Made by a program: the position numbers and the translations under genes. From Candidatus Hodarchaeum mangrovi (GTDB lineage Archaea; Asgardarchaeota; Heimdallarchaeia; Hodarchaeales; Hodarchaeaceae): a DNA stretch of 45,747 bases. Shown one piece after another: positions 3,556-13,626 of this stretch. The DNA lies in assembly GCA_016839515.1 (NCBI GenBank), contig JAEOUE010000230.1, positions 1 through 45,747 on the forward strand. Reading direction: 5' to 3'. Each line of letters opens with the position of its first letter. Position 1 is the first letter of the stretch. Below the pieces are notes generated by a model. The model had not been told where the DNA came from and ran no database searches. It saw only the letters and a program-made list of their open reading frames with translations.

Positions 3556-4323
3556 CTAAATTTTGATGCAGAGAAAGAAACCTAAATCCTCTAGGAAGTA
3601 AAAATCTTGAACTAAACGAAATCCTGAATCCTTTAATCCTTTTTGAAACATTTCCCATGTAAAACGGGCTTGAAATGGATGATAAACTTTTAAATAACGC
3701 TGAAACCTGTTAATTGATCGATTGTTAATCTCATTAACTAAAAAGAATCCTTTTGGTTTAAGAAGGCGATTTACTTCCTTTAATGCTTTTTCCCATTCTA
3801 TAATGTGATGAAAAATTGTAAAAGCAAATACCACATCAAATCTACTAGAGGGAAGTTTTACTTTACGAATATCTCCTAAAAAGACCATTATTTGACCCCT
3901 ATAATTTCTTGTCTTTGCTTTAGTCAAAGCGACCATTTGAGGATTTATATCAAATCCTTGATATTCCTTAGGATGAAATTCCTTCATTATTGATTCAAAA
4001 CCATAACCTGCACCACATCCGACCTCCAGAATTCTCAAACCTGAAAGATTAAGCCCTTGGGTATGCAATAATAGTTTAAATATTCGCATTTCAAACTGCG
4101 TTTGCATCAATTTTTTCAATGGACTTTTAATGAACTTTTCTTCTATAAAATGAAAATTCAATGCAGAATTAGAATTTTTTTCTTGTAAATTAGCTTTCAT
4201 GATGGTAATTCCAAGAAATCTCTTAAATTTACTGAATAAATTTTTTAAAAATATATTTTGGTCTTCTTCATATCGTTCCTGAAAGGTTTCTTTGATTAAC
4301 CTAATGTTATGCTCATATTTCAT
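3556..4323 (-). CDS. Class I SAM-dependent methyltransferase (Methyltransf_11/UbiE-like); true start may be the ATG at 4200
   Basis: ILEVGCGAG motif I, GFDINPQMV, FDVVF, FHHI and RLLKPKG. Confidence 0.85.
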   Translation of the reverse strand: MKYEHNIRLIKETFQERYEEDQNIFLKNLFSKFKRFLGITIMKANLQEKNSNSALNFHFIEEKFIKSPLKKLMQTQFEMRIFKLLLHTQGLNLSGLRILEVGCGAGYGFESIMKEFHPKEYQGFDINPQMVALTKAKTRNYRGQIMVFLGDIRKVKLPSSRFDVVFAFTIFHHIIEWEKALKEVNRLLKPKGFFLVNEINNRSINRFQRYLKVYHPFQARFTWEMFQKGLKDSGFRLVQDFYFLEDLGFFLCIKI

Positions 4324-4358: not shown

Positions 4359-4724
4359 ATGAAGGAGATGTACGCTCAAATTCCTGTCTATAAGAATTAT
4401 GGAAAGATACTGGAATTTTCTGAAAATTTAAAAAAAGAAGATATTGAGTTTTTTGCTGTAAATATTACCCCAGATCAGCTTATTGATATATCAAAGGATT
4501 TGGATATATTATTTACGTCTCAAACCTATGTTATGGTCAATAATTCATCAAAACATATTTTTTTATGGATTGGTAAAGAAGCACCTGTAAGACTTCGGTT
4601 TTTAGGTGCTTACCTTGCTCATAAATTGCAGCAAAGGAAAGGTTTCACATACCGAGTAATAAGTATTGATCAAGAAAATGAATCAGATGAATTTATAAAG
4701 TCTCTAGCAATTTTATATGATTAA
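4359..4724 (+). CDS. Single-domain gelsolin/villin-like protein
   Basis: The C-terminal ~75 aa match the gelsolin repeat pattern: YVMVN..IFLWIGKEAP...GAYLAHKL...VISIDQENESDEF. Confidence 0.75.
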   Translation: MKEMYAQIPVYKNYGKILEFSENLKKEDIEFFAVNITPDQLIDISKDLDILFTSQTYVMVNNSSKHIFLWIGKEAPVRLRFLGAYLAHKLQQRKGFTYRVISIDQENESDEFIKSLAILYD

Positions 4725-4915: not shown

Positions 4916-5668
4916 ATGGGAGTAAAACTGATGTCTAAAGAAAAAAGAGTCTCACAAAAAGAAAAGTTGGTAGGTTTAATTAAATTAGCACGTCCTCAAT
5001 TTCTTATTGCTTATTTTATTGTTGCAATTGGTGGTTTAACCATGGGATTTAAAGAAAGTTATCCCATTGATCTATCGATGGCCGTTTTCGCTATTTTTAA
5101 TGCTTTACTATCAGCAATTGGGGTTCATTTTCGAGACGAGGCTGGAGATTGGGCTTCAGGGTATGATAAAGAAATTGGAGGGATGGGAATAATTCGAGAT
5201 AGAATATTTACTGAGGATTCCGTTCGTACGATGGGGAGAATTCTTAGTTCTCTTACAATTCTTTTAGGACTCCTTCAGGCATTGATAGTTCTTGTATTGA
5301 ACAATCAAGGAATACTCTTCATGATTGGAATTCCTATCATTATTATGATTATATTTGTAAATTATCTTACAGAAGAAATACCCTTAGGTCATGAAATAAT
5401 TACTGCTGGATCTTATTTTGCTACCTTTTATTGGGTCTTTTTCTCTCAAAGCTGGGTTTTAACACCATCAGTTTTATTTTTCTCACTTTTTTTATATTTA
5501 ATTGTTTTCGCTTTGATACCTTATCAGGATATTGCAGATCTAGAGGCAGATGCAAAGACAGGGAAAAAGACATTAGCTTCAAAGCTTGGTCTTGATGGAG
5601 TAGGACATCTAGCTATATTCATTGGATTATTAAGTTTCCTCCTATTATATGTGGCTATCTTGATATGA
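4916..5668 (+). CDS. UbiA-family prenyltransferase (MenA/DGGGPS-like)
   Basis: N-terminal LARP, Asp-rich motifs DEAGDWASGYD and QDIADLEADAKTGKKT, multiple TM helices. Confidence 0.8.
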   Translation: MGVKLMSKEKRVSQKEKLVGLIKLARPQFLIAYFIVAIGGLTMGFKESYPIDLSMAVFAIFNALLSAIGVHFRDEAGDWASGYDKEIGGMGIIRDRIFTEDSVRTMGRILSSLTILLGLLQALIVLVLNNQGILFMIGIPIIIMIIFVNYLTEEIPLGHEIITAGSYFATFYWVFFSQSWVLTPSVLFFSLFLYLIVFALIPYQDIADLEADAKTGKKTLASKLGLDGVGHLAIFIGLLSFLLLYVAILI

Positions 5669-6004: not shown

Positions 6005-6598
6005 ATGAACAAAGAGATCCAATTAGGAGGATATGAAATATGCAAAGTGTGTGGTTTTATCCGACCAGCTGGAAAAGGAGGTATTTGTTCAGCTTGTGGA
6101 GCACGAGAACGTGCTTTTATACCTTTTGAGCATAAAGCTTCAAAAAACAGACGAGAATATTTAAAATTTGATGTTCATCCAGTTATAGTGCATTTCACAG
6201 TCAGCTACACCGCAACCATGGTTATTCTTTTTCTAATAAATGAATTCATAACTGATAATATTCTTGGGATGGAAATCTCTCCCGCTTTAGATCTTATAAT
6301 TCTTTTACTTCCTCTTTTAGTAATGTTAGCAGGGATAACGGGCTTGATAGATGGAAAAGTTAGATATCGAAAATTACTAACTCCTTATTTACGACTTAAA
6401 ATCTCAATGGGTGTAGCTTTATTTATTGATTCATTATTCATTTTATTATTTCATATATTCATTGCATCTCAAAATGGATTATTTTTTATTCTCAAAGTAA
6501 TCCTCATTCTTGCCGCGATTGGATTAGCTAGCGGACTGGGTTGGTTTGGAACGAAGCTCGTTGGTTTTATTGTCCCAAGAGGGATCGAGTTAAAATAG
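6005..6598 (+). CDS. Rubredoxin-like Fe/Zn(Cys)4 domain fused to a DUF2231-like membrane domain
   Basis: CKVCG...CSACG, then HPVIVHF and about 4 TM helices containing AGITGLIDG. Confidence 0.75.
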   Translation: MNKEIQLGGYEICKVCGFIRPAGKGGICSACGARERAFIPFEHKASKNRREYLKFDVHPVIVHFTVSYTATMVILFLINEFITDNILGMEISPALDLIILLLPLLVMLAGITGLIDGKVRYRKLLTPYLRLKISMGVALFIDSLFILLFHIFIASQNGLFFILKVILILAAIGLASGLGWFGTKLVGFIVPRGIELK

Positions 6599-6640: not shown

Positions 6641-7315
6641 TTAGATTAATCCAAGGATATCATCCTTTGCGATACTATAGATCCAGCTAACACTAGTATA
6701 AATTTTTCTAATCATTAGTGTTCTATCAATTAAAACACTAACCCAAGAATGAACGAGTTCAGCAGGATAAGTTTCATTTTCATGGTGAATACTTAGTTTA
6801 AACCCAGATGTGGAATTATTAATAGTAGTATTAAACCACTCAAAGAAATCTTTGGCATAAGAAATAACATTGTAATCATCAACTACTTTATTGATTTCTG
6901 CTTGAGTATGAGCAGTTAAAAACTGCCATACAGAAAAGTTAGCTCCATAATCACTCCCATATGTTTTTAATCTTTCGGGAGTATCATAAAGAGGATCCAA
7001 TGTTATACTGAGCATTTGAAAATCTGTATCTAATTTTGGAAAAAGATCACTTTGAAGCAATTTAAAATGAGTTGTCATTAATGGACAGAATTCATCTTGA
7101 CAAGCTGTATACATAAAACCAATTAAGATAATCTTATTCTCAAAATTTTCCAATGTTACAGTTTGATTATCTTGATTAATTAATGTAAAGCTAGGGGCTC
7201 GTTTAATTACTGTAAGAGGTTGATTCTGAGCAAGTGGTGCTAATATAAATGCCATTAAAACACCTGAAGTAATCATAAAACCAATAAATAGACCAACTAA
7301 ATTTTTTTTATCCAT
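6641..7315 (-). CDS. sco: SCO1/SenC-family copper chaperone
   Basis: N-terminal TM; FTLINQD, FMYTACQDEFCP, SITLDPLYDTPERLKTY, WQFLT, conserved His in LVHS; last gene of the oxidase operon. Confidence 0.9.
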   Translation of the reverse strand: MDKKNLVGLFIGFMITSGVLMAFILAPLAQNQPLTVIKRAPSFTLINQDNQTVTLENFENKIILIGFMYTACQDEFCPLMTTHFKLLQSDLFPKLDTDFQMLSITLDPLYDTPERLKTYGSDYGANFSVWQFLTAHTQAEINKVVDDYNVISYAKDFFEWFNTTINNSTSGFKLSIHHENETYPAELVHSWVSVLIDRTLMIRKIYTSVSWIYSIAKDDILGLI

Positions 7316-7340: not shown

Positions 7341-7712
7341 TTAAATCCCGCAAAGGTAAACAACTGTTCCCATTGCTGGAATTAAGACAACTGGTAACGC
7401 GATAAAAAGGGGGATTCCAAACATGATGCCTGCTGTTACCCAAGGGCGTTTTTGATATTTAATTCCCATAAAAAATGCAGCAACAAGAGCAGCTTTTACA
7501 AAAGCTAATGAAATAAGAGTAATTGGAACTAATAGCTCTACAATATTCTCAAATGTCGGTATATTTTGCATAATATCCCCGATAAAACTTACATTAAGCT
7601 CTAAAATTGTAAGAATAGCTAAAGATAAAAATACTGTCGTATAAGGACGTTTTACTGGTAAGGATGGCTTTTCTTCTGGTTCTCTTTTTTCATTCAAGTT
7701 TATCATCTTCAA
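7341..7712 (-). CDS. ctaF: Cytochrome oxidase subunit IV (caa3/CtaF-type)
   Basis: 3 TM helices; LAILTILE and KAALVAAFFMGIKY; overlaps the end of subunit I. Confidence 0.75.
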   Translation of the reverse strand: MKMINLNEKREPEEKPSLPVKRPYTTVFLSLAILTILELNVSFIGDIMQNIPTFENIVELLVPITLISLAFVKAALVAAFFMGIKYQKRPWVTAGIMFGIPLFIALPVVLIPAMGTVVYLCGI

Positions 7713-9312
7713 ACGTTAGTTCTTCTGTTTTCTTTACAGGCTCTTCATCTAAGGCTGATAATCCAAAGGGATCCTCACCTGCTTCAGGTCCCCATTTCAA
7801 GCTAAAAATCATATTAACAAAAAAGATTAAAATTGAAAAAGCCATTAAAAACGCACCTATGGTTGCAAGAAGGTTTAATATCGTAAAAATTTCTACTTTA
7901 CTTACTTCTCCAAAAATTCCGAACGGGATAGTCTCTGTAAACGTTGTATAATCAAAATATCGACGTGGCATCCCATAAAGGCCAACAATCATCATCGCAT
8001 TAAAGGTAATGAAAACTCCTCCTAACCACGTAAAGGTATGTATCCATCCTAATCTACGATTATACATCTTTTTTTTCCCAAACAGAGTCTCTGTAAATTC
8101 AGGGAAAAAATTATAGAAGCCGCCAAATAAAGAAGTCACTGCCCCACCAATAATAATCATATGAAAGTGTCCTACAACGAATGCAGTATCATGAGCAATA
8201 ATGTCAATAGGAATAATGTTAAGCCATACTCCAGTTATACCTCCAATGACAAATCCAACAACAAAACCCATAGGAAGAACCAAAGGTGATTCAAATTTTA
8301 TTTTTCCGCCCCACATGGTAAGTAACCAATTAAATGTTTTAATTCCTGAAGGGATGGCAATCAAAAAGGTTAGTGCATTAAAAAATGTAGTTGTTACTGC
8401 ATCTGCTGCCGCCCCATATATTGTATATTGATGATGACCCCATACGAGGAAACCAATGAATGTAATAGCTAACATTGAATATATCATTGATCTATAACCA
8501 AAAATTCTGTTTTTTGAAAATTTAGATATTAACAAAGATGTAATTCCCATTGCTGGAAGTATCATAATGTATACAGCTGGATGTGAGTAACTCCAAAATA
8601 CATGTTGCCACAGAAAGGCTCCAATACCTGATCCCAAGGCAGTAAAGAATGCAGTATTAAGAACGCGATCAGATAAAAGGAGAATTAGTCCGGTAGTAAT
8701 TAGAGGAGTAGCACAAAGCTGAATAATTGAAGTACACAATATCGACCATGAAAAAAGATCCATATCAAACCATTTAAGTTCAGGTCGACGCATAGATACA
8801 ATCGTCATAATAAAATTGATAGCAGAAACTAATGATGAAACTCCAGCAATTAATACACCAATTATCCATGTATCAACACCAATACCCCAATCAATAGAAC
8901 TTAATGGAGTATACAATGTCCAACCAACACTCGCTTCACCAAAATAAAGTAAAAGAGCTGCTGGAACTAATAACCAAAATGCAGCATTATTCCACCTAGG
9001 CCAATACATATCGGGTGCTCCAATTAATTTGGGAACTAAATAATTAGCTAATCCAGCTCCTATTGGAAAAATGACCAGAAAAATCATAGCTGTTCCATGA
9101 GCTGTGAATAAAATAGAATAAACTTCATCATTGACAATTTGACCGCCAGGTAATGCCAATTCAATACGAATAATCAAGGCTAATAATCCAGAAACCGCAA
9201 AATTGAATAAAGCAAAAACTATGTATAAAATTCCGATTTCCGCATGATTGGTTGTACCAATTAAAGTATTGAGACTTTTGTAGAAAGGCTTGTAATGAGA
9301 TCGTTCATTCAT
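7690..9312 (-). CDS. ctaD: Heme-copper oxidase subunit I, family A2
   Basis: TAHG (low-spin heme His), APDMYWPRWNN (D-channel), GWTLY, WSYSHPAVY (CuB His/Tyr with YS motif), WGHH, GIKTFNW (K-channel), VGHFH, GMPRRY. Confidence 0.97.
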   Translation of the reverse strand: MNERSHYKPFYKSLNTLIGTTNHAEIGILYIVFALFNFAVSGLLALIIRIELALPGGQIVNDEVYSILFTAHGTAMIFLVIFPIGAGLANYLVPKLIGAPDMYWPRWNNAAFWLLVPAALLLYFGEASVGWTLYTPLSSIDWGIGVDTWIIGVLIAGVSSLVSAINFIMTIVSMRRPELKWFDMDLFSWSILCTSIIQLCATPLITTGLILLLSDRVLNTAFFTALGSGIGAFLWQHVFWSYSHPAVYIMILPAMGITSLLISKFSKNRIFGYRSMIYSMLAITFIGFLVWGHHQYTIYGAAADAVTTTFFNALTFLIAIPSGIKTFNWLLTMWGGKIKFESPLVLPMGFVVGFVIGGITGVWLNIIPIDIIAHDTAFVVGHFHMIIIGGAVTSLFGGFYNFFPEFTETLFGKKKMYNRRLGWIHTFTWLGGVFITFNAMMIVGLYGMPRRYFDYTTFTETIPFGIFGEVSKVEIFTILNLLATIGAFLMAFSILIFFVNMIFSLKWGPEAGEDPFGLSALDEEPVKKTEELTFEDDKLE

Positions 9313-9326
9313 ATTTTAATCACCAA

Positions 9327-9986
9327 CTAAGAAACTATAATCGTCGCTTCCATCGTATAATGACCGAACCCACAGTATTCTGCACAATGAACTGCATAGC
9401 TACCAGGTGTTGAGACTTTTAGGTAAATAATATTGAATCGTCCAGGAATCATATCAAGTTTAATTGACAATTCATGGCAATAAAAGCTATGAATAACATC
9501 TGTACTAGTTAAATTTAACTTATAGGATTTATTAACCTGTAAATATACAATGTTTGTTGTAGCATTTCCAGTTTGTTTATTATAAAACTGGAAGTAATAT
9601 TGGTAGCCTACTACTAGAATTTCTTCATCATATTCTTGATCAGTCAAATAACTTGTAGTTACTGGAAGACTTGAAATGAATAGAATAACAACAATAATTG
9701 CAGCAAATAAGATCCATGCTAATTCAATCCTAGTTTCATTCTGAATTAGCTTTCTGATGGTTTTAGAACCCGCACGGAAACGTACGAGAATATAGGTCAT
9801 TAAACCATAAACAATCCCTGCAATTAATAAAGAAAAAAATAAAACAACAGCGAAAAGAGACTCAAGTTGAGGGGTGTATTGGGATCCTCCTTGTCCAATG
9901 GTTTTAGAAACTAAATTCGTGACTACATAAAAAAAACCTCCCAAGCTTAAGAATTTGACAATATAATTATTCCTCATTCGTCTCAT
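9327..9986 (-). CDS. ctaC: Heme-copper oxidase subunit II with CuA site, no fused cytochrome c
   Basis: IELAW, GYQYYF, DVIHSF, CAEYCGFGHYTM; no CxxCH motif. Confidence 0.95.
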   Translation of the reverse strand: MRRMRNNYIVKFLSLGGFFYVVTNLVSKTIGQGGSQYTPQLESLFAVVLFFSLLIAGIVYGLMTYILVRFRAGSKTIRKLIQNETRIELAWILFAAIIVVILFISSLPVTTSYLTDQEYDEEILVVGYQYYFQFYNKQTGNATTNIVYLQVNKSYKLNLTSTDVIHSFYCHELSIKLDMIPGRFNIIYLKVSTPGSYAVHCAEYCGFGHYTMEATIIVS

Positions 9987-10064: not shown

Positions 10065-11519
10065 TTAAATCAGATATACTAATGTGAAAAGAATAATCCA
10101 AACTAGGTCTACAAAATGCCAATAGAGTCCTACTAATTCGACTGCTCCATAATTTTCTTTTGTGAAACCCCCACGATAGGCTTTTAGTGTTGTAAAAAAT
10201 ACCAGCAATACCCCAAAAAATACATGAAGCCCATGTAATCCTGTTTGAATGTAAAATGTAGAACCAAATAGATTTGTTGCTGGTGTAAATTGTTCCTGAA
10301 ATAAATTAGAATATTCAAATAATTGAATTCCTAAAAAAATTGTGCCTAATGTACAGGTGGCTGCTAAAAACTGCCATAAATGCTTTCTATTTCCATATTG
10401 AATTGCTTCAACCGCCTTAACCATTGTAAAGCTACTTACAATTAAGATAAAAGTATTAATGGCTGTAAGAGGTATATTAAGAATGTCTCCTGGATTTGGC
10501 CAATTAGCTCCTGATGCGATTCTTAATCCAAATGATGTGCCAATTATCATAGAAAATAGAATTACTTCAGAACCCAAAAATATCCAAACCCATCCTTCCT
10601 GAGTGTGCTTAAACAAATTCTGAGTATAAGCCTCATTAAAAATAAAACCAATAAGTAAAACGAAAAAAATCCACAACAAAGCAATTGCAGAAATTTCCTG
10701 ACCTTGAGTAAATAAAAGAATCGCATAAGCAACGAATAAAGTTCCTATTGCCAAGGCAGCTGGCCATAGAACCACCTCATGAACATATTCAGTAGAACTG
10801 TTAGAAGGATCTTCTTCAATATCTTTTGGTTTTTTGCTGAATCCAATTAGTATAATAAGTATTAATCCAAGAAATGCAGCTAGGAGCACAATTGGTAATA
10901 AATCACCACCACCCCCAGGTAGGAAGTCAGATAGTATAGGAATGTCATAAATAAGAGTGCCTCCATAAACAATTATTGCTCCCGCTCCAGCAACCATTGT
11001 CAAGATTAAATAGCCAAAGATTTGACTACCAAGATAGAGAATTTGAATTAAAAAATTTTGTTTGTTATAAAGACGTTCATGACGATAATTAACAAAGTAA
11101 ATGCGTATTAAACCCGCAAAGATAAAAAAATAAGTACCAAAAATTGACCAAATTACTTTATATGAAATTATTTCGCTCTTTCCTGCTAATTCGATACCCA
11201 AAAACAGGTTATCAAGATTTATATTTGATATTCCAATGTTTCCAGAAGCATCTAGGAATCCAGCAATTGCTGCAATAAATAACATGAATAAACCATAAAT
11301 CAAACATATAAACGCGACAAATTCAAATTTATCAAGAATCTGAATAAATTTAGCCTCAGAAATTTTAACCCTTCTGTCAAATAGTAATGAAAATGGTTTT
11401 TTCTGAAATAGATTGAGAGCATTTAAAATTGATATGATAAAAACGATTATACTTGTTATTAAACTAGCTGCAAGTAGTGCGATATGAAAATGTAATAAAA
11501 TTGGGTGTAACTCAGCCAT
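10065..11519 (-). CDS. ctaE: Fusion of an N-terminal DUF2231-like membrane domain with cytochrome oxidase subunit III
   Basis: C-terminal half has WIFLGSEVILF, NTFILIVSSFT, QLFEY, TGLHGLHV and YWHFVDLVW. The N-terminal ~230 aa begin HPILLHFHIAL and contain AAIAGFLDA. Confidence 0.88.
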   Translation of the reverse strand: MAELHPILLHFHIALLAASLITSIIVFIISILNALNLFQKKPFSLLFDRRVKISEAKFIQILDKFEFVAFICLIYGLFMLFIAAIAGFLDASGNIGISNINLDNLFLGIELAGKSEIISYKVIWSIFGTYFFIFAGLIRIYFVNYRHERLYNKQNFLIQILYLGSQIFGYLILTMVAGAGAIIVYGGTLIYDIPILSDFLPGGGGDLLPIVLLAAFLGLILIILIGFSKKPKDIEEDPSNSSTEYVHEVVLWPAALAIGTLFVAYAILLFTQGQEISAIALLWIFFVLLIGFIFNEAYTQNLFKHTQEGWVWIFLGSEVILFSMIIGTSFGLRIASGANWPNPGDILNIPLTAINTFILIVSSFTMVKAVEAIQYGNRKHLWQFLAATCTLGTIFLGIQLFEYSNLFQEQFTPATNLFGSTFYIQTGLHGLHVFFGVLLVFFTTLKAYRGGFTKENYGAVELVGLYWHFVDLVWIILFTLVYLI

Positions 11520-12816: not shown

Positions 12817-13626
12817 TTAATATTCTTTCTTGTCTTTTTCAGATTTCCAAATTTGTGACAGTTTTTCAGCTTTATTTTGATCTATTAAAGCACTAAGATC
12901 TCCATTTTTTAAAAATGTTCCCACAATAGCCCCAGAAATATATGGAAAGACTTGTTGAACGTTTTTGCTTGTCAATCCACTTCCCAAAATAGGTTTAATT
13001 CCTGTTAATTGATACAATTTTTGTAGGTCAACAAGATGAATCATTGATCCTGTTTCTCTTCCTGAAACAATTATAGCATCAGCTTTTCCTCGGATTAAAG
13101 CATTCTTAGAGGCCTCTTCAAGAGAAAAATTCCCTAATGGAGAAGCATGTTTAACATGAACATCAGCTAATATCATAATGTTTAATCCAAATATGTTCTT
13201 CTTTCGAATAACATCATATGCAACGCTTTCTATTTTACCTTGGTCTGTTATATATGTCCCTTCCCATACATTACAGCGAATAAAGGCAGCTCCATGTACT
13301 GCAGCCATGATTAAAGCCTGTTTACAGGCATTACGTAAGATATTGATTCCAAAAGGAATTTTTATTTCTTTAACTATCTCTCCCACGATAGTACTCATCA
13401 CGAGATATTTATAATCATCTAGACGGTATTTTGGAAAGGGATTATCATGAAAATTCTCGATTAAAATGGCATCAAATCCTGTTTCTTGAAGAACTTGTAC
13501 ATCACATAAACAGTGTTCGATTACTGAATCTAAAGATTTTTCACTAGGCCTTGGAAAAGGAGGTAAATGAATCATTCCAATTAAAGGTTTGGTTGTTAGG
13601 TCAAAGGAATTAATCAGCTGAGCCAT
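12817..13626 (-). CDS. BtpA/SgcQ family TIM-barrel protein
   Basis: IGMIHLPP, IENFHDNPF, GINILRN, ADVHVKHA, ADAIIVSG, GAIVGT. Confidence 0.92.
   Translation of the reverse strand: MAQLINSFDLTTKPLIGMIHLPPFPRPSEKSLDSVIEHCLCDVQVLQETGFDAILIENFHDNPFPKYRLDDYKYLVMSTIVGEIVKEIKIPFGINILRNACKQALIMAAVHGAAFIRCNVWEGTYITDQGKIESVAYDVIRKKNIFGLNIMILADVHVKHASPLGNFSLEEASKNALIRGKADAIIVSGRETGSMIHLVDLQKLYQLTGIKPILGSGLTSKNVQQVFPYISGAIVGTFLKNGDLSALIDQNKAEKLSQIWKSEKDKKEY

Follow-up and report, generated by a model that had tools for sequence, protein, structure and literature searches.

A DUF2231-like membrane module fused to cytochrome oxidase subunit III of Candidatus Hodarchaeum mangrovi and its gene linkage to a DOMON protein

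Of all known archaea, Hodarchaeales are the most closely related to eukaryotes, and aerobic respiration by eukaryotes' archaeal ancestor is a matter in dispute. In the report on the first cultured Hodarchaeales, the strain is said to lack any recognisable route by which electrons could reach its Cox, and uncharacterised proteins are allowed as a possible fill for this gap (10.1101/2025.02.26.640444). For Kariarchaeaceae, DOMON-containing neighbours of the Complex IV operons as well as coxA-coxC fusions have already been noted, and we found no mention of an N-terminal domain on CoxC in the passages of that preprint that we consulted (Appler et al., bioRxiv 10.1101/2024.07.04.601786). The Hodarchaeales enzyme has also been termed a typical CyoABCD: a Hodarchaeales cyoABCD in E. 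coli membranes reportedly exhibited ubiquinol oxidase activity, which would speak for quinol entry, and no cytochrome c oxidase activity, in an assay without DOMON co-expression and in a host with quinol oxidases of its own (Lu et al., 10.1101/2025.11.07.685452). The text consulted does not mention an extension of COX3 and does not say whether the cloned cyoC carried an additional module.

We analysed a window of 45,747 nt (the whole stretch of DNA under study) from contig JAEOUE010000230.1 of Candidatus Hodarchaeum mangrovi (Hodarchaeales, GCA_016839515.1), in which the gene for subunit III of the oxidase also encodes a membrane module, here called the N-module, in front of the COX3 domain (Table 1). 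The open reading frame starts with ATG and contains no internal stop, and because the G+C content of the window is ~31%, open frames of such length are not expected by chance. Its translation starts with MAELHPILLHFH, contains the linker KKPKDIEEDPSNSSTEYVHE and ends with LYWHFVDLVWIILFTLVYLI, the final letters being YWHFVDLVW. In the Pfam search with the whole protein, COX3 (PF00510) covers aa 251-483 with 90 bits (cut-off 23.8; model positions 10-255 of 258), and DUF2231 (PF09990) matches aa 4-116 with 16.1 bits (E 0.012), missing its cut-off of 26.4. The subunit III matches in NCBIfam and in the PDB profile search are confined to the C-terminal part, with E-values down to 6.5e-36 for subunit III chains in the PDB; the N-module had no match in the PDB sequence search, every PDB match falling in the COX3 part. 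In the AF2 model of the whole fused protein, five TM helices lie in the N-module and seven in the COX3 part (aa 252-483). A preliminary description of this locus had proposed that COX3 is preceded by an extra membrane module of ~230 aa and that the frame, including an acidic linker, is uninterrupted; both proposals hold, with a module of 232 aa and 5 TM helices followed by a 7-TM COX3, and a translation of 484 aa without a stop.

Table 1. Features of the oxidase locus in the window, with strand and the basis of each assignment.
Feature	Position	Strand	Basis
Entire fused gene (N-module, linker and COX3; 484 aa)	10065..11519	-	ORF, Pfam, AF2
N-module, aa 1-232, 4-helix bundle + fifth TM helix, divergent DUF2231-like	10824..11519	-	profiles, AF2
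Acidic linker, aa 233-251, variable, pLDDT <50, predicted cytoplasmic	10767..10823	-	alignment, AF2
Subunit III (COX3/CtaE) domain, aa 252-484, complete, 7-TM	10065..10766	-	Pfam, NCBIfam, PDB profiles, AF2
DOMON protein, 262 aa	11520..12308	-	Pfam PF03351
Subunit II (COX2), full CuA motif	9327..9986	-	Pfam, translation
Subunit I (COX1), YSHPAVY motif	7690..9312	-	Pfam, translation
Small subunit IV (COX4_pro)	7341..7712	-	Pfam
SCO1/SenC copper chaperone	6641..7315	-	Pfam
Zn-ribbon + 4-TM DUF2231-like paralogue	6005..6598	+	Pfam, topology

The fusion recurs well beyond this contig. In a word-based protein search, 33 clusters with lengths of 467-499 aa span 99-100% of the query at 47-90% identity, and 4 further clusters, shorter or partial, also carry the N-module. 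Where the fused clusters are labelled, all labels are Asgard (Hodarchaeales/Hodarchaeota, Heimdallarchaeota, Promethearchaeota, one Odinarchaeota, one Hermodarchaeota and one partial Kariarchaeaceae), and the matches ranked below them are 266-311 aa long and contain the COX3 half only. Among the species genomes of the class, the same open frame, with a length of 447-486 aa, is present in 8 genomes of the window's genus, its own genome included. Near-identical DNA was found in 19 runs from 7 studies; a 1695-nt contig of run X3 covers positions 10065-11265 with 0 differences over 1201 bases, a 255-nt contig of run X10 covers 10583-10837, and both of them cross the linker. The fusion is genuine and vertically conserved, and its confirmation, for which the preliminary description had suggested reads or proteomics, comes from these independent assemblies, which bridge the junction. 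A 167-nt contig from a metatranscriptome run (X20) lies on 10344-10510, which is no demonstration that the fusion is transcribed. A search of genome contigs, which drew on patterns of the COX3 part, was dominated by bacterial COX3 and returned a single fused relative (L003). Subunit III with such a module is a variant so far undescribed.

When ten N-modules were searched alone, all of them matched PF09990 at E ≤ 1 (best 2.3e-6), and the N-module of the window scored 13.5 bits, under the gathering cut-off of 26.4. Three of the 25 family representatives pass the DUF2231 cut-off (P0131 with 27.3, P0140 with 39.5 and P0144 with 29.8 bits), and the N-module is therefore tied to DUF2231 transitively, through these relatives. 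Judged from its sequence, the N-module is a divergent, DUF2231-like branch and no formal member of the Pfam family. The DUF2231-like character claimed earlier is supported by the matches of all ten modules and by the three passing relatives, with the score of the window's own module staying below the cut-off. Literature searches on DUF2231 (COG4244, PF09990, IPR019251) yielded only unrelated work.

An exhaustive profile-HMM search of 1.84e9 representative proteins gave 27 matches at E ≤ 1e-3, comprising 2 fused representatives, 1 spurious beta-propeller and, for the rest, stand-alone proteins of 123-263 aa. The preliminary description had called for an HMM search of the DUF2231+COX3 architecture and its spread; COX3 turned out to be the sole fusion partner, no other partner being found among the 1.84e9 proteins, and the spread is that of the Asgard-labelled clusters. 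Longer fused forms of canonical-like members were not found either, which is weak evidence with a search of this type. A word search with the module alone (134-429 aa) returned a single partial fused protein, and the stand-alone paralogues surfaced only with profile searches. Identity of the family to the window's module is 20-67%. In a maximum-likelihood tree, 18/18 fused rows form one clade (support 100/99), which is nested among the 5-TM stand-alone paralogues, and the 4-TM stand-alone forms make up the other main clade. A single nested clade of this kind indicates one fusion event, in a Hodarchaeales lineage. The Zn-ribbon DUF2231-like paralogue of the window recurs close to the operon in two other loci (L112 and L116); its HP/D motifs lie on the K/R-rich, presumably cytoplasmic side, and its orientation is opposite to that of the N-module.

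The N-module was modelled with AF2 from a 30-sequence alignment with good confidence (pLDDT 91.1, pTM 0.87): four helices form an up-down bundle, which is joined by a short helix at the surface (aa 102-114) and by a fifth helix. A Foldseek search of this model against the PDB returned nothing at E ≤ 1e-3. In the wide structural scan with VIA, the top match (Z 11.6) was a de novo design, the common helical-bundle level of this tool being ~13, and the top scores of the ESM Atlas search, 0.81-0.84, were under that tool's informative level. We also considered the N-module as a duplicated COX3 bundle and dropped this idea, as its VIA scores to COX3 chains (Z 8-10) do not exceed those to unrelated bundles.

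HPxxxHF at the opening of helix 1 together with an Asp closing helix 2, which we take to be the defining motif of DUF2231, is seen in the family members here: among the fused rows, H5 and H10 are each kept in 20/20, and across the family H5 is kept in 30/30 rows, H10 in 27/30 and D90 in 28/30. The preliminary description had feared that the His residues might be unconserved, and for His 5 and His 10 these counts dispel the concern; His 12 bears it out in part, since it is kept in 19/20 fused rows but in only 18/30 family-wide, with Pro in the remaining 12. K121 is found in 30/30 family rows, and G87, G108, G180 and G186 are likewise conserved. On the cytoplasmic side, the 5-TM subfamily has a second set of conserved residues, R139, Y141, R146, E148 and Q154, and the module carries a conserved RxYxxNYRxER. 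The orientation of the module can be approached from two directions: the predicted inner loops contain more K+R than the outer loops in 20/20 fused proteins, and the N-terminus of 7-TM COX3 is cytoplasmic, in agreement with the Thermus I+III fusion that was matched in the PDB profile search. Taken together, these put H5, H10, D90 and K121 on the side of DOMON and CuA, so that the conserved site is predicted to sit where helices 1-4 end at the outer membrane face.

The gene preceding the fused gene encodes a DOMON protein (87.3 bits to PF03351, cut-off 32.7) with an N-terminal signal or anchor and a C-terminal TM helix, and the fused gene starts immediately after its stop codon, with 0 nt between them. 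M107, H137 and H201 are invariant in 10/10 oxidase-linked DOMON proteins, and a VDSxGR tail beside the TM helix is conserved as well. In characterised DOMON cytochromes, haem b is ligated by a Met/His pair, and by analogy M107 and H201 are candidate ligands of haem b in this protein. The DOMON profile had no match among PDB sequences. DOMON is located directly upstream in 8/8 fused loci (the window, L111-L116 and L089), and among the 16 stand-alone paralogue loci of the class, ten have a DOMON or DOMON-like gene upstream. In four of these (L101, L103, L104 and L106) the gene immediately upstream was identified as DOMON by phmmer; the other six have a conserved, C-terminally anchored, DOMON-like gene of ~305 aa, whose profile aligns with the DOMON profile in hhalign (E 7.8e-5, probability 61%) with the invariant Met/His columns in register. 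The remaining 6/16 loci lack a recognisable DOMON neighbour: the upstream gene is MFS in L095/L096, a 374-aa Big_7 protein with a colinear but insignificant DOMON alignment (E 0.2) in L097/L098 and an unknown 185-aa gene in L099, which gave no match, and in L102 the contig ends. Some of the module-linked DOMON proteins are large surface DOMON-FN3 proteins with no relation to an oxidase. The module-less operons of the genus (G060 and G061), with the order COX2-COX1-COX3(277 aa)-COX4, are missing DOMON too, implying that the two parts come and go together. This association of module and DOMON genes is new in the present analysis, and its counts in fused and stand-alone loci substantiate the earlier linking of the extra domain to DOMON/CuA.

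The gene order of the operon is DOMON-COX3-COX2-COX1, with COX2 and COX1 directly downstream of the fused gene. The translation of COX2 has an intact CuA motif, H-x34-C-x-E-x-C-x3-H-x2-M, and the YSHPAVY of COX1 presumably marks it as A2-type. Subunit II of the bo3 type has lost the CuA ligands, and R71, D75, H98 and Q101 of CyoB are, as we take it, the residues of the bo3 quinol site. At these positions, the numbering of which was checked on the E. coli K-12 CyoB sequence, COX1 of the window has V/L/V/I, and none of the four residues is kept in 6 Asgard rows; the window oxidase therefore shows neither the quinol-site residues nor the loss of CuA that go with the bo3 type. Cytochrome b and Cytochrom_C were each found in 0/22 genus genomes, and Copper-bind in 1/22, that genome carrying a module-less operon. 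In the window's own genome, which is 91% complete so that absences are soft, complex III, cytochrome c and a blue copper protein were not found, which suits the background part of the earlier suggestion that the module substitutes for complex III. Neither PF13442, nor cytochrome bd, nor the futalosine-pathway marker was found in this 91% complete genome; its sole Rieske protein is soluble and oxygenase-like, and MenA is present above the cut-off.

From the gene linkage, the predicted site and the respiratory context, we infer that DOMON may have its membrane partner in the module, and that electrons (from quinol) may enter there on their way to CuA, our preferred reading, to which we assign a probability of roughly 0.45. 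The module would be dedicated to the DOMON protein of the gene directly upstream, which is exported and tethered to the membrane, and the two together would make up the electron-entry device of the oxidase. The outer-face site (H5, H10, D90, K121 and the conserved glycines) would bind the DOMON domain and hold it at the enzyme, and the module would probably also oxidise (mena)quinol at the outer face with no cofactor of its own, in an NrfD/PsrC-like manner. Electrons would then pass from quinol to the putative DOMON haem b (candidate ligands M107/H201) and to CuA in subunit II, and from CuA onward to haem a and a3/CuB. Subunit III is found at a distance from subunit II in the A-type oxidases of known structure, so that DOMON would need to extend or swing over to CuA. 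The points that favour this reading are the DOMON linkage, the outward site, the missing donors, MenA and the intact CuA; quinol entry in particular is indirectly favoured by a subunit I without the bo3 quinol site next to a subunit II that keeps CuA. We know of no quinone-site motif for DUF2231, and none was found in the module. Against the entry reading stand the 6/16 stand-alone paralogues without a recognisable DOMON neighbour, the fold, which matches generic bundles only, and the futalosine-pathway marker, which was not found in the 91% complete genome.

It is rather unlikely, but worth weighing first among the alternatives, that the module handles cofactors at the outer face, where it would give haem b to a Sec-exported DOMON or supply CuA/SCO1 with copper, and is a fused assembly or maintenance factor; an assembly factor was also named as an option in the preliminary description. 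The DOMON protein has no twin-arginine motif, which suggests that it is exported unfolded and would have to acquire its haem after export. The conserved outer-face residues of the whole family (His, His and Asp) and, in the 5-TM subfamily, a further conserved patch facing the cytoplasm, which is conduit-like, are consistent with such a function, and so are the SCO1 gene within the operon and the 617-aa Cytochrom_C_asm protein that follows the stand-alone paralogue in L102. Weak Cytochrom_C_asm Pfam matches also occur in 3/10 N-modules, but the best of them has an E-value of 0.002 and they are far under the cut-off. Moreover, the stoichiometric fusion of an assembly factor to a core subunit is rare, Met- or Cys-rich copper motifs are absent, and the link of the module is to DOMON generally, including the oxidase-unrelated DOMON-FN3 proteins, rather than to CuA.

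We regard as unlikely a purely docking or structural role, in which the module anchors the C-terminal TM helix of DOMON or stabilises or oligomerises the oxidase, and the electrons come from another donor or quinol site. Gene-order linkage by itself demands only co-function, the conserved VDSxGR tail of DOMON and the cytoplasmic RxYxxNYRxER of the module could contact each other, and no cofactor or quinone motif was found in the module. However, the His, Asp and Lys that are invariant at the membrane surface in a family of such low identity (20-67%) suggest chemistry over packing, and another donor was not found in the 22 genus genomes.

It is very improbable that the module binds haem and acts as a b-type cytochrome or quinol dehydrogenase in its own right, relaying electrons across the membrane or along it like the cytochrome b561 of CYBDOM. 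The pairing with DOMON does resemble CYBDOM, and there are weak fold likenesses to STEAP (Foldseek TMq 0.40), to part of a cytochrome bd subunit (VIA Z 11.4) and to cytochrome b6f chain 7r0w_I (Z 9.3), but the VIA matches are not above those with de novo bundles. Only columns 5, 10 and 12 keep a His in 80% or more of the rows; the three lie together at one end of helix 1, and no conserved His was found on any other helix in the module alignment. Because the conserved His residues are confined to helix 1 and H12 is Pro in 12/30 family members, a classical transmembrane cytochrome b is disfavoured; the earlier idea of a haem-binding module finds no support on the same ground, with three His within 8 residues of one helix and no specific cytochrome-b fold match. 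An artefact of assembly or read-through uniting two separate genes, named in the preliminary description as the outcome that would overturn it, found no supporting point and is ruled out for practical purposes by the 33 full-length clusters from many assemblies, the 8 genomes of the genus with the same frame and the contigs of other studies that span the junction, one of them with 0 differences over 1201 bases.

The reading of module and DOMON as the entry device can be carried further, to a joint proposal that we consider possible but doubtful: a two-part quinol:CuA device, composed of a cofactor-less outer-face quinol site and a tethered haem-b DOMON shuttle, would replace complex III and cytochrome c in Hodarchaeales, and at the same time the DOMON/DUF2231-like pair would be a general, undescribed prokaryotic membrane-to-surface redox module, a counterpart of CYBDOM. 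The fused module and DOMON are operon-encoded, testable candidates for the electron input that is missing for the Hodarchaeales oxidase, and the pair may be the route along which electrons reach oxygen in these close relatives of eukaryotes. Within the uncharacterised DUF2231 superfamily, one branch also gains its first functional context in the form of a DOMON partner.

With regard to known systems, the C-terminal 233 aa correspond to a complete 7-TM COX3 of the A-type subunit III (CoxC/CtaE, PF00510), in an operon with COX2, COX1, COX4 and SCO1. The E. coli bo3 oxidase (CyoABCD) has four homologous subunits; however, its CyoC (204 aa) is without an N-terminal module, whereas the oxidase described here keeps CuA and has V/L/V/I at the quinol-site positions. 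DUF2231 (PF09990), an uncharacterised 4-TM family, shares with the N-module the HPxxxHF(H/P) that opens helix 1, the Asp ending helix 2 and the 4-helix core, while the N-module (13.5-16 bits) adds a cytoplasmic loop of ~30 aa, a fifth helix and the fusion to COX3. In eukaryotic CYBDOM, cytochrome b561 is fused to DOMON, and b561 has four conserved His on several helices and binds two haems. The likeness to CYBDOM lies in the combination of a membrane helical module with an extracytoplasmic DOMON of the Met/His type; the difference is that the module here lacks the multi-helix His pattern, and that module and DOMON are encoded by separate genes. Membrane subunits of the NrfD/PsrC/ActC type oxidise quinol without a cofactor and have an extracytoplasmic redox partner. 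The likeness to these is in the proposed logic only, by which an outer-face subunit would oxidise quinol and hand its electrons straight to the partner, whereas proteins of the NrfD type possess at least 8 TM helices and work with iron-sulphur partners, and no relation of sequence or fold to the module was found. The Complex IV operons of Hodarchaeales and Kariarchaeaceae, as described in a preprint (10.1101/2024.07.04.601786), differ from the present one, in which a 232-aa, 5-TM domain stands before COX3 and the genes follow the order DOMON-COX3-COX2-COX1.

The oxidase operon is flanked by genes for a UbiA/MenA-like prenyltransferase and a UbiE/COQ5-like methyltransferase, and the true MenA of this genome is located outside this locus (G000:C109:1673-2497). 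At L116, another locus with the fused subunit III gene, the UbiA-like gene likewise adjoins a gene for a zinc-ribbon DUF2231-like protein, an arrangement that may represent an accessory pair with a quinone-related role. The zinc-ribbon gene is found close to the operon again in L112, also a fused locus, as well as in L116. Its product in the window carries an N-terminal CxxC...CxxC zinc ribbon in front of the DUF2231-like body, and matches the module family with an E-value of 9.5e-5 (hhalign). The HP and D motifs of this protein are on the side rich in K/R, so its membrane orientation appears to be opposite to that of the COX3-fused module. Two other neighbors were noted. The gelsolin-repeat gene adjoins the respiratory locus; gelsolin repeats are cytoskeletal, eukaryote-like domains that Asgard genomes typically carry. 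The BtpA-family gene immediately precedes the DOMON gene upstream.

Features in the window and at related loci
Feature	Location	Strand	Details
UbiE/COQ5-like methyltransferase	window 3556-4323	-	
Gelsolin-repeat protein (PF00626)	window 4359-4724	+	121 aa; 23 bits (cut-off 21)
Divergent UbiA/MenA-like prenyltransferase	window 4916-5668	+	33 bits (MenA cut-off 102)
Zn-ribbon, 4-TM DUF2231-like protein	window 6005-6598	+	197 aa; 16 bits to DUF2231
BtpA-family protein	window 12817-13626	-	225 bits
Unfused DOMON/module/oxidase arrangement	L104 52-6365 (G033)		
Second DOMON paralogue	L120 1315-2067 (contig C261, window's genome)	+	
NapH-like membrane polyferredoxin	L120 2092-2934 (contig C261)	-	Fer4_5 + Fer4
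Second oxidase operon type	L121 5548-8834 (G061)		COX2-COX1-COX3(277 aa)-COX4
Second oxidase operon type	L122 6785-10071 (G060)		COX2-COX1-COX3(277 aa)-COX4

The second oxidase operons, from two genomes of the same genus, contain neither DOMON nor module; among the 22 genus genomes, only G061 has a Copper-bind (blue copper) match (24 bits). In the window's own genome, the second DOMON paralogue lacks a His at the place equivalent to the candidate haem ligand H201 (translation read by eye). Its gene lies tail to tail with that of the NapH-like polyferredoxin, and the two possibly form another DOMON membrane redox pair.

Among the stand-alone module paralogues, a surface cluster recurs in other Heimdallarchaeia families (L100, L105, L107-L110), comprising genes for large DOMON-FN3 proteins (~900 aa), an anchored DOMON-like protein (~305 aa), the 4-TM paralogue and a LanC-like protein (516-543 aa). 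At L102, by contrast, the gene after the paralogue encodes a Cytochrom_C_asm protein of 617 aa. L104 has the order DOMON, stand-alone module (188 aa), unknown 533-aa protein, O-methyltransferase, 119-aa ORF, COX2 and COX1, and may represent an intermediate between the stand-alone DOMON/module pair and the fused operon.
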